Virus record (IMG/VR): IMGVR_UViG_2671180755_000021
DNA length: 3,950 nt
DNA from: a virus
Lineage: Duplodnaviria; Heunggongvirae; Uroviricota; Caudoviricetes
Reading direction: 5' to 3' (one strand)
Part shown: positions 1,601 to 3,396 of the stretch, in pieces
Layout of the letters: the number at the start of each line of letters is the position of its first letter
Position numbering within the stretch: position 1 is the stretch's first letter
Translations under genes and position numbers: made by a program
The notes under the pieces: generated by a model
What the model saw: only the letters and a program-made list of their open reading frames with translations
Told to the model about the DNA's origin: nothing
The model's database searches: none

Positions 1601-1668
1601 TCCCTCGCCGTGTGCTTTCGTGTTGTGTGCCTGCTTTTTACCACGTCAGGCGAGGTGGTCCCCGTTAT

Positions 1669-1714
1669 TCCCCAACAACAAGGATCTTGTTAATCTGGAT
1701 ATCCCCAACAACAA
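1669..1714 (+). repeat. Two perfect 13-bp direct repeats TCCCCAACAACAA, 33 bp apart, upstream of the orphan gene
   Basis: TCCCCAACAACAA at 1669-1681 and again at 1702-1714. The interval between contains a GATC and GATATC. Candidate regulatory sites for the downstream gene; no protein assigned. Confidence 0.5.
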
Positions 1715-1728
1715 TAAGAGTATTGAAT

Positions 1729-2244
1729 GTGATCGCTGAATTAACGGCAGCAATGACGGCTATTCGTGAAACCGCCCAGATTGCAAAACTAATGAACGAG
1801 GCAAAAACTCAAGCTGAAGTAAATGCGGCTATTGGTGAACTGAACTCAAAGCTTGCATCTATTCAGCGCGAATGCGTGTCTCTCGTTGAGCTGGTGGGCA
1901 CTTATCAAGAAATAAATGCTTCTCTCAAAGCTAAAATTGCAGAATTTGAAAACTTTGAGGCTCAGACGGAAGGTTATATCCTTAGCCAACTTGAGTCGGG
2001 AACTTTTGTGTACTCGAAGGAGGTAACCGTGAACGGCGGCAGCATAATCATGCATCTTTGTCCAAAATGTTTTGGACAAAAGATAGTATCGATACTTCAG
2101 CCATTCCCGGTTAGAGAATATGAATTTTTTCATAAAAGCAGGTGCCTGTACTGTGAAAATCAGTTTCTTATGAATAAAAATCCGGATTACGTATCACCTC
2201 CATCTATTGAAGAGTTGGCCAGAAAACTGAACGGCAATCTGTAG
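1729..2244 (+). CDS. Hypothetical protein: N-terminal coiled-coil plus C-terminal C-x2-C-x24-C-x2-C zinc ribbon (171 aa from GTG 1729, or 163 aa from ATG 1753)
   Basis: Long plus-strand ORF ending at TAG 2242-2244. N-terminal ~90 aa is alanine/glutamate/lysine-rich and heptad-like (TAIRETAQIAKLMNEAKTQAEVNAAIGELNSKLASIQRE...). C-terminal part carries CPKC and CLYC 24 residues apart. AAGAG lies 8 nt upstream of GTG 1729. The track's extension back to GTG 1612 translates to R/P/C-rich low-complexity text and is probably non-coding. Not recognised as any named family. Confidence 0.65.
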   Translation: MIAELTAAMTAIRETAQIAKLMNEAKTQAEVNAAIGELNSKLASIQRECVSLVELVGTYQEINASLKAKIAEFENFEAQTEGYILSQLESGTFVYSKEVTVNGGSIIMHLCPKCFGQKIVSILQPFPVREYEFFHKSRCLYCENQFLMNKNPDYVSPPSIEELARKLNGNL

Positions 2245-2358
2245 ATTTTTACTGTTATGGATATCCAGATTGTTAAAGAGCATGCCGGATGCTTGCTTGT
2301 GTCCGGCGCGTGTGCACCACTCTCCCCCCGTGGAGGATTCCTTAATTACCAGATTTCA

Positions 2359-2689: not shown

Positions 2690-2718
2690 ACTATAGGAAA
2701 TGCCTAATTGCTTGTCAA
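2690..2718 (-). promoter_or_regulatory. PL-like leftward sigma-70 promoter, TTGACA-17-TATAGT
   Basis: On the minus strand: -35 TTGACA (plus coords 2713-2718), 17-nt spacer, -10 TATAGT (plus coords 2690-2695). Faces the 76-aa gene and is overlapped by operator-like sites. Confidence 0.6.
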
Positions 2719-2826: not shown

Positions 2827-3303
2827 TTAAGTTCCTGTCTTGGTGATGTTCTGGCTTTTCCGTTTTGATTCTTGATTTTTCAGATAGTTAGCTACCTTCA
2901 TTTCCATTGCGGCAATGTAGGCACGAACGTCATGATCAACCCAACTAGGCTCCGTAGCATTTCCAGATAAGAGGAAAGCCACAATTGCTCTTTTTTCATC
3001 AGAGGCGGCTTGATAAAGGCTGTTTATGTCTAAAAGTTCACTTTTTGTATCTGAAGTGGATGGGGTTGGTATGGGGTATTCGTTAAGCCCCCAATGCTCT
3101 GGACCAACCACATCAGAAAAGAAACGCCATAGTTCTGGAAGTTTGTCTTTACTTATCGAACCTTTCTTAATCCAGTCATGGATTGATGGTGGTTGGACTT
3201 TGAAATGACGTGCGATTTCCGCCTTTGATTTGACGGCTCCTGATGCAATTTTTTTGTTAATGGCCTGCTCTATCGCTCGGCCTAAGTCTTTACCACTAAG
3301 CAT
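2827..3303 (-). CDS. racR: RacR-like prophage repressor (HTH DNA-binding protein), 158 aa
   Basis: Minus-strand ORF, ATG 3301-3303, TAA 2827-2829, AGGAGA about 11 nt upstream. N-terminal HTH-like segment (SKAEIARHFKVQPPSIHDWIKKGSISKDKLPELW). Divergent from a YdaS/YdaT-like pair, matching the racR-ydaS-ydaT organisation and the 158-aa length I recall for E. coli K-12 RacR. Symbol assigned from memory of that organisation, not from a search. Confidence 0.8.
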   Translation of the reverse strand: MLSGKDLGRAIEQAINKKIASGAVKSKAEIARHFKVQPPSIHDWIKKGSISKDKLPELWRFFSDVVGPEHWGLNEYPIPTPSTSDTKSELLDINSLYQAASDEKRAIVAFLLSGNATEPSWVDHDVRAYIAAMEMKVANYLKNQESKRKSQNITKTGT

Positions 3304-3332: not shown

Positions 3333-3396
3333 TAGGCAATACCTACTCTCGAAGCGTTAGGCATAGCCTATTGACAATTGCATTAGGCTAAGCCTA
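3333..3396. promoter_or_regulatory. Right operator cluster (OR-like): three TAGGC-N3-GCCTA-type sites at 25-26 bp spacing
   Basis: O1 TAGGCAATACCTA 3333-3345 (one mismatch), O2 TAGGCATAGCCTA 3358-3370 (perfect), O3 TAGGCTAAGCCTA 3384-3396 (perfect). O3 sits inside the 17-bp palindrome ATTAGGCTAAGCCTAAT (3382-3398). Confidence 0.6.

Follow-up and report, generated by a model that had tools for sequence, protein, structure and literature searches.

A Rip1-family gene in the sieB slot of the Escherichia coli O157:H7 prophage Sp6, behind a predicted sieB-type promoter

The gene ECs_1504 of the Escherichia coli O157:H7 prophage Sp6 encodes a protein of the Rip1 family, occupies the slot that is held by sieB in other prophages and lies behind a predicted sieB-type promoter; by homology, its product is probably a pore-forming protein that is triggered by a phage protein ring. 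The stretch of DNA analysed, referred to as the window, is 3,950 nt in length. It represents the left arm of Sp6 and is 100% identical to the sequences of the strains Sakai and EDL933 and of many other O157 genomes. The annotated gene order in Sp6 is int, xis, the remnant of a recE-type exonuclease gene, ECs_1504, a DUF1391 gene, racR, ydaS and ydaT. In the window, int (1-1119) and xis (1088-1357) lie on the minus strand within 1-1357, as do the 3' remnant of the recE-type exonuclease pseudogene (1419-1608), the DUF1391 (ydaF-like) gene (2359-2589), which is the first gene of the early-left operon and is convergent with the Rip1-family gene, and the racR repressor gene (2827-3303). Most of the exonuclease pseudogene lies hidden under a run of 125 N at 1452-1576, in place of which Sakai has 337 bp. 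ECs_1504 itself (1729-2244, plus strand; WP_000559928.1) encodes 171 amino acids from a GTG start and is annotated as 'hypothetical protein' in both Sakai and EDL933; a literature search found no paper that mentions ECs1504.

An earlier reading of the window, made from the letters alone (the sequence-only reading), had pointed to a plus-strand ORF at this place, and the ORF is indeed present and annotated as ECs_1504. That reading had also called the protein an orphan without a named family and had suggested profile, structure and defence-library searches. In a single-sequence phmmer search against the PDB, ECs_1504 matched the chain 9oox_L, 'ring interacting pore 1 (Rip1)', with an E value of 3.6e-7. 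When a profile of 29 homologues (alignment A1) was used, the E value was 3.6e-24, the match covered residues 16-160 of the 164 residues in the chain, and the four cysteines were aligned; hhalign of the same profile against HK446 gp37 gave a probability of 98.9%. The relatives recovered from phage genomes by tblastn were HK446 gp37 (27% identity), HK620 hkaP (about 29-30%) and gp30 (30%) of DMS3, JBD30, MP42 and other Pseudomonas phages, and the identity of ECs_1504 to the characterised Rip1 proteins is 26-32%. ECs_1504, HK446 gp37, HK620 HkaP and JBD30 gp30 all match phrog_1244 (E 1e-51 to 1e-61), which is listed as of unknown function in PHROGs, and the four proteins have in common the four cysteines, Q46, L66 and a SILQ motif. 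An exhaustive HMMER search showed that the Rip1 family comprises 3,349 clusters at 50% identity, nearly all of them 145-180 aa in length and alike in architecture and size. The protein is thus neither an orphan nor without a named family: it falls in the Rip1 family by profile, fold and phrog_1244, and the cassette described below, which carries its gene, is found in 654 of 5,426 complete E. coli genomes. Scans of the protein against Pfam and NCBIfam gave chance-level coiled-coil matches only, and the defence-library search gave no more than a chance-level 9-bit match in PADLOC-DB v2 (2023), a library older than Rip1.

The predicted structure leads to the same family. The AF2 model, built on the 29 homologues, has a mean pLDDT of 86 and consists of N-terminal helices (about residues 2-79, resolved into 2-24 and 28-79) followed by a small beta/zinc-ribbon domain, which agrees with the helical N-terminal half that had been read from the sequence. 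The C-terminal four-cysteine motif proposed in the same reading was also confirmed; C111, C114, C139 and C142 form a CxxC-x24-CxxC pattern that is invariant in the 29 homologues and aligns with the cysteines of the HK446, HK620 and JBD30 proteins. When the model was compared with the PDB by Foldseek, 9oox_M/L alone reached significance (E 1e-5, probability 1.00, TM 0.73 for the target); the alignment to 9oox_M spans 118 columns, and the next-best PDB match has an E value of 0.7. The title of the entry 9OOX is 'Escherichia phage HK446 Rip1 in complex with the Enterobacteria phage T6 small terminase'. From these results we concluded that the whole length of ECs_1504 shares both sequence and fold homology with Rip1 from coliphage HK446 and from the JBD-type Pseudomonas phages.

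The sequence-only reading had offered, as another role, a nucleic-acid-binding regulator, and had named DksA/TraR as similar in architecture. The coiled-coil plus four-cysteine architecture is all that speaks for a zinc-ribbon protein, of the DksA/TraR type or another, that regulates genes of the prophage or the host. The DksA spacing is CxxC-x17-CxxC, which differs from the x24 of ECs_1504; neither Pfam, NCBIfam nor PADLOC gave a match to such a family, and Rip1 is the sole relative with a solved structure, both by sequence and by fold. We therefore rejected the DksA/TraR-type C4 zinc finger as a candidate and regard a regulator of this kind as highly improbable.

What Rip1 does was described by Patel et al. 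2026 (Nature 651:1060), whose work we follow here as summarised in a review (PMC13434031). Rip1 is a single prophage-encoded protein that is not toxic by itself (PMC13434031). Phages escape it by mutations that affect the portal, in the case of Pseudomonas phages, or the small terminase, in the case of coliphages (PMC13434031). In cryo-EM, 12 Rip1 subunits surround an 11-mer ring of small terminase; the ring is contacted by the C-terminal half, and the N-terminal half is an amphipathic helix (PMC13434031). The assembly is a pore, as dye leaks from liposomes, holes appear in cells and the infected cell lyses prematurely (PMC13434031). If ECs_1504 works as its characterised relatives do, it would be made constitutively at a low level in the lysogen from the sieB-type promoter and would do no harm by itself. 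Once the late genes of a superinfecting phage are expressed, the C-terminal four-cysteine domain would bind the packaging ring, that is, the small terminase or the portal; about 12 subunits would then gather round this ring, and their N-terminal helices would form a pore in the inner membrane. Death or lysis of the cell would precede the maturation of progeny, amounting to abortive infection. On induction of Sp6, strong leftward antisense transcription might, more speculatively, shut ECs_1504 off.

It is also conceivable, although unlikely in our view, that the Rip1 fold of ECs_1504 serves another trigger or output, for example by sensing a different phage oligomer, or by acting as an exclusion factor or adaptor without a pore. 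An identity of 26-32% means that the specificity of the trigger, and even the output, could differ. The C-terminal tail (about residues 150-171, with a predicted helix at 160-168) extends past the region aligned with HK446 Rip1, and the amphipathicity of the N-terminal helices is borderline: the maximum hydrophobic moment is 0.44, a value that about 5% of shuffled sequences reach for residues 1-24 and that is not significant for residues 28-79. Moreover, the defence protein RAZR couples a related way of sensing rings with a zinc finger to a different effector (PMC13434031). Against such a change of function, the full-length alignment takes in the N-terminal helical half, there is no extra domain that could serve as another effector, and size and architecture are the same across the 3,349 clusters. 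A scan for hydrophobic (membrane) segments in ECs_1504 found none, the maximum 19-residue Kyte-Doolittle mean being 1.13. We favour the ring-triggered pore, and because of the low identity and the borderline amphipathicity we infer its trigger and details from the relatives.

The length of the protein had been given as 163-171 aa, and the comparison favours the 171-aa form with the GTG start over the 163-aa form with an ATG start. In about 20 loci of other genera, including Salmonella, Citrobacter, Kosakonia, Symbiopectobacterium and others, the start codon is GTG (with one TTG and one ATG), and the N-terminus (V)IAEL is also kept. Since GTG and (V)IAEL are conserved across these loci and a Shine-Dalgarno sequence, AAGAG, lies 8 nt 5' of the GTG, we concluded that the 171-aa start is right. 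The suggestion that the gene is richer in A+T than int or racR holds only marginally, with a GC content of 0.419 for the ORF, 0.426 for racR and 0.453 for int.

Concerning its position, ECs_1504 is, as had been proposed, the sole plus-strand gene between int/xis and DUF1391/racR; it does not directly adjoin xis, because the exonuclease remnant intervenes. The proposed moron position was confirmed: ECs_1504 lies in the slot occupied by sieB in Rac, lambda, P22 and Sp15, antisense to the early-left operon. In K-12 Rac, sieB on the opposite strand abuts ydaF (DUF1391), and in Sp15 (VT1-Sakai) sieB is antisense between N and ssb. The Rip1 gene of HK446 is antisense between N and the anti-restriction gene ral, hkaP of HK620 between N/hkaQ and cIII, and gp30 of JBD30 between the small and large terminase genes (terS and terL). 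In an intact relative of Sp6 (strain 2013C-3181), the order is xis, a full-length recE-type exonuclease gene, DUF1482, dicB, the Rip1-family gene and DUF1391. More distant homologues lie antisense as well, in Salmonella behind cro and in Citrobacter between xis and cI. A prophage-borne single gene in antisense setting was seen in Sp6, PhiR49_1, O103, Salmonella, Citrobacter, HK446, HK620 and JBD30. The occupants of the slot differ between prophages, which answers positively the suggestion that it is a variable hotspot.

The gene is carried on a 661-bp block (1621-2281, plus strand) that is 93.6% identical to its counterpart in unrelated prophages of the yfdP type (PhiR49_1 and that of O103:H2 12009), where it adjoins cI. 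The recurring position, together with the presence of this block in unrelated prophages, led us to conclude that the slot is a variable exchange point and the gene a mobile cassette. It is worth mentioning that a true sieB lies behind a homologous promoter head in Sp15 of Sakai (locus L263, 1501-2186); the strain Sakai therefore holds both slot occupants, Sp15 sieB and Sp6 ECs_1504, in different prophages.

A BLAST search with the leader of ECs_1504 matched the sequence that precedes sieB in P22, in lambda and in many relatives, and the curated P22 record annotates the matched region as 'sieB promoter' and 'sieB RNA start site'. We carried these features onto the window by an alignment (A4). 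The promoter thus predicted by homology (1668-1703, plus strand) has a -35 element TTCCCC (1668-1673), a 17-nt spacer, a -10 element TAATCT (1691-1696) and a start at about 1702-1703. The 5' UTR placed by the P22 start (1703-1728, plus strand) would be about 26 nt in length and contain the AAGAG (1716-1720). Both hexamers are invariant or nearly so in 17 leaders, one homologue (L013) having TATAAT at -10; a consensus promoter scan did not call the sieB-type promoter at 1668-1703. Across genera, the 100 nt before the GTG (1629-1728) have a mean pairwise identity of 0.77, versus 0.60-0.68 for the coding sequence, and the homology of the leaders begins abruptly at GCCTG. Likewise, the first 30 nt of the leaders of HK446 Rip1 and HK620 hkaP are almost identical, and the proteins are only about 27-29% identical. 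Since P22 expresses sieB, among other functions, as a prophage (PMC10461980), the homology to its promoter is the best support for an expression of ECs_1504 in the lysogen, which we consider likely on these grounds. The weak -35 element and the GTG start fit a low level of expression.

Within this region, CCCCAACAACAA occurs twice, at 1668-1680 in the -35 region and at 1701-1714 at the predicted start, so that the second copy falls at the 5' UTR. P22, HK446 and Rac carry ACCCCTACAG at both places; therefore, the two copies change together between subfamilies. Two other functions were considered for the leader and rejected. A structured plus-strand leader (riboswitch or thermometer) is not indicated, as the MFE z-score is +0.56, RNAalifold gave no covarying pairs, and the greater part of the conserved block lies 5' of the RNA start that is annotated in P22. 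As for the CA-rich repeats being Hfq (ARN)n sites or mimics of GcvB targets like AgvB, the first repeat is the -35 region, and AgvB sits at the PR' moron site of Sp10 and Sp17. No entry for ECs1503-1505 was found in the Hfq-CRAC supplements searched, and an Rfam search with both strands of the leader gave no family match.

The 5' end of the conserved block, here called module 1 (1629-1658, about -74 to -44 of the promoter), contains two interleaved helices with the pattern GCCTG-N7-CCAC-GT-CAGGC-GAG-GTGG. It is also present in P22 (L152:901-931), K-12 Rac (L006:8056-8101) and HK446 (L007, about 3338-3368), and an exact-pattern scan of IMG/VR detected it in at least 120 contigs (loci L032-L151). 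The ORF downstream belongs to the Rip1 family in 12 of 110 cases, and the remainder make up more than 30 unrelated groups of small proteins, among them true SieB (PF14163), zinc-ribbon proteins of 76-81 aa, a family of 144-148 aa, a protein of 107 aa that has hydrophobic stretches and one of 136 aa that combines a coiled coil with CxxC. For the majority of these groups, Pfam gave no match; their genes are candidates for a role in exclusion or defence.

For the structure test, copies of module 1 were gathered with the help of the protein or of an anchor that lies outside the stems, which avoids bias, and 26 distinct variants, a small sample, were aligned by hand. Watson-Crick pairs were found at 244 of 248 stem positions, and both helices show compensatory changes: helix 1 occurs as GCCUG/CAGGC, GCCCGG/CCGGGC and GCCGGG/CCCGGC, and helix 2 as CCAC/GUGG, CCACC/GGUGG, CCACG/CGUGG and UCACG/CGUGA. 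Three of the four exceptions would be G.U on the minus strand and A.C mismatches on the plus strand. The loops, a short first one and a long A-rich third one, suit an H-type pseudoknot on the minus strand, which is the direction of early-left transcription. Module 1 may therefore be an H-type pseudoknot in the minus-strand RNA, a possibility that we regard as a good lead and not as a result, since the alignment was made by hand from a small sample. In P22, a 105-nt antisense RNA, sas, controls the translation of sieB. Inspected by eye, module 1 was a misfit on both strands for a CRP site, a sigma-54 promoter or an intrinsic terminator.

At the other end of the cassette, a tail (2259-2282, minus strand), GGATATCCAGATTGTTAAAGAGC, is kept in the family after the stop codon. 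Its minus strand at 2270-2282 reads TGCTCTTTAACAA, a 13-mer that recurs unchanged in E. coli about 130 nt before rrsB, in the leader of rrnB, and for which no match is expected by chance. This 13-mer, which we take to be the rrn boxA, would lie on the early-left transcript just before its entry into the antisense of ECs_1504, and its core is kept in cassette tails of other genera. The N-containing phages HK446 and HK620 have instead an 8-nt boxA core, GCTCTT[TA]A, between PL and N, which in HK620 is within the annotated nutL. On the leftward transcript, the boxA of the tail could protect the untranslated antisense passage from termination and, more speculatively, might help leftward transcription through ECs_1504; with the passage through the cassette protected, xis and int would stay expressible.

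Directly after the tail there is a hairpin, GCCGGA-N12-TCCGGC (2284-2307), without a T run on the plus strand. In Sp6 it replaces the canonical intrinsic terminator of most homologues, AGCGTCC-N4-GGGCGC-T6, and a terminator scan called none. The ORF is bracketed by an inverted repeat with arms of 26 nt (1692-1717 and 2246-2271) that are 81% complementary, and the tail is an inverted copy of the -10/+1 region of the promoter, AATCTGGATATCC. A convergent promoter at the tail was rejected as a candidate, because only the -10/+1 part is duplicated, without a plausible -35 element.

Further upstream on the leftward transcript, a near-consensus promoter (TTGACA-17-TATAGT, 11/12; 2690-2718, minus strand) is the candidate PL. 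The heptamer GCCTAAT occurs five times in the window (0.39 expected), at 2702, 2727, 3331, 3382 and 3392, flanking racR on both sides and overlapping this promoter and the racR-ydaS intergenic region; these heptamers are candidate RacR operators.

Compared with the intact relative, Sp6 lacks about 2.95 kb, and the junction is 124 bp upstream of the GTG of ECs_1504 (window about 1600-1605; L009:532-3484). The deletion, which is marked by the truncated 5' end of the exonuclease remnant, took most of the exonuclease gene, DUF1482, dicB and an intergenic region. In intact relatives, this intergenic region has sub-threshold Rfam matches to STnc100 (L009 and L013) and DicF (L013); an Rfam scan that included the unmasked Sakai stretch under the N run found no known RNA family in that stretch.

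The loss of so much DNA beside ECs_1504, the recE pseudogene, the replaced terminator and the outcome of the consensus promoter scan could mean that the gene is a decaying or silent leftover of the Rip1 family in a defective prophage, without a current function in O157:H7. We consider this improbable, because the dN/dS of ECs_1504 against three alleles is 0.14-0.23, which shows that the gene is under purifying selection, all 100 nt of the promoter head are preserved and agree with the consensus of the family, and 286 genomes have the cassette at 99% identity or more, with a related allele kept in a further 321. The evidence as a whole instead supports, by homology, the earlier proposal of a single-gene superinfection-exclusion or antiphage function expressed in the lysogen. 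Profile and structure searches gave Rip1 (9OOX) as a full-length profile match and the sole significant fold match, so that sequence, profile and fold all link ECs_1504 to a characterised single-protein defence; the exact sieB slot is occupied by it; and the region upstream is homologous to the promoter of the prophage-expressed P22 sieB.

Taking the head and the tail together, we tentatively propose, as a possibility that is more doubtful than not, a 'sieB-type moron cassette', in which the pseudoknot of the head and, in N-less prophages, the boxA of the tail, both on the antisense strand, would control the conflict of the cassette with its own prophage. If so, early transcription would pass the antisense gene without polarity and the toxin would be off on induction of the prophage, a parallel to the way in which sas and esc switch sieB in P22. 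In that case, the head would also serve as an inexpensive marker by which to find, in genomes, more than 30 families of small prophage proteins that are likely to act in exclusion or defence.

The Rip1 family, described in 2026, is already known, and ECs_1504 is an added member of it; the head with covarying helices, the many unrelated genes behind this head and the boxA borne by the cassette may be new. A hypothetical protein in about 12% of complete E. coli genomes thereby gains a name and a testable mechanism. ECs_1504 is in essentially all O157:H7 Sp6 prophages; this bears on phage therapy and on interactions between the prophages of EHEC. The sieB slot with its promoter is an exchange point at which abortive-infection genes of unrelated kinds take each other's place. 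With the promoter head as the sole query, the more than 30 further families of small proteins come to light, and new defence genes may well be among them; the possible antisense-strand pseudoknot and the boxA offer testable leads on how antisense morons coexist with the operons that they interrupt.

Among known systems, the closest to ECs_1504 is Rip1 itself (HK446 gp37 and JBD-type gp30), with which it shares full-length homology, phrog_1244, the fold, the four cysteines and the SILQ motif. The two are of the same size (164 aa in HK446 and 171 aa in Sp6), and both are encoded by a prophage-borne single gene that runs against the transcription of its neighbours; HK446 gp37 has, in addition, the same sieB slot and promoter head. 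They differ in that the identity is 26-32%, ECs_1504 has a GTG start and about 20 extra C-terminal residues, the repeated promoter motif is ACCCCTACAG in HK446 and CCCCAACAACAA in Sp6, and ECs_1504 lives in an N-less Rac-type prophage with a boxA at the cassette tail. HK620 HkaP, annotated as 'putative superinfection exclusion protein', resembles ECs_1504 in its phrog_1244 membership, about 30% identity, promoter head and slot between N and cIII antisense to PL, but belongs to another subfamily. SieB (P22, lambda, Rac and Sp15; PF14163) has the identical slot and orientation and a homologous promoter head, is expressed from the prophage and has a role in abortive infection, like the one proposed here for ECs_1504. 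However, SieB has no sequence similarity to ECs_1504 (the PF14163 profile gave nothing at E<=1 against ECs_1504 and 2.4e-22 against a true SieB behind the same promoter head). SieB sequences also have a hydrophobic N-terminus, whereas ECs_1504 has no hydrophobic segment, and ECs_1504 shows no sign of an internal Esc-type product. SieB is thus a positional and regulatory analogue of ECs_1504 and not a homologue. RAZR, finally, is likewise a single-protein defence, inactive until its zinc-finger domain wraps a second ring round the ring of a phage packaging protein (PMC13434031); its effector is a HEPN RNase and not a pore, and no sequence relationship to ECs_1504 was detected.
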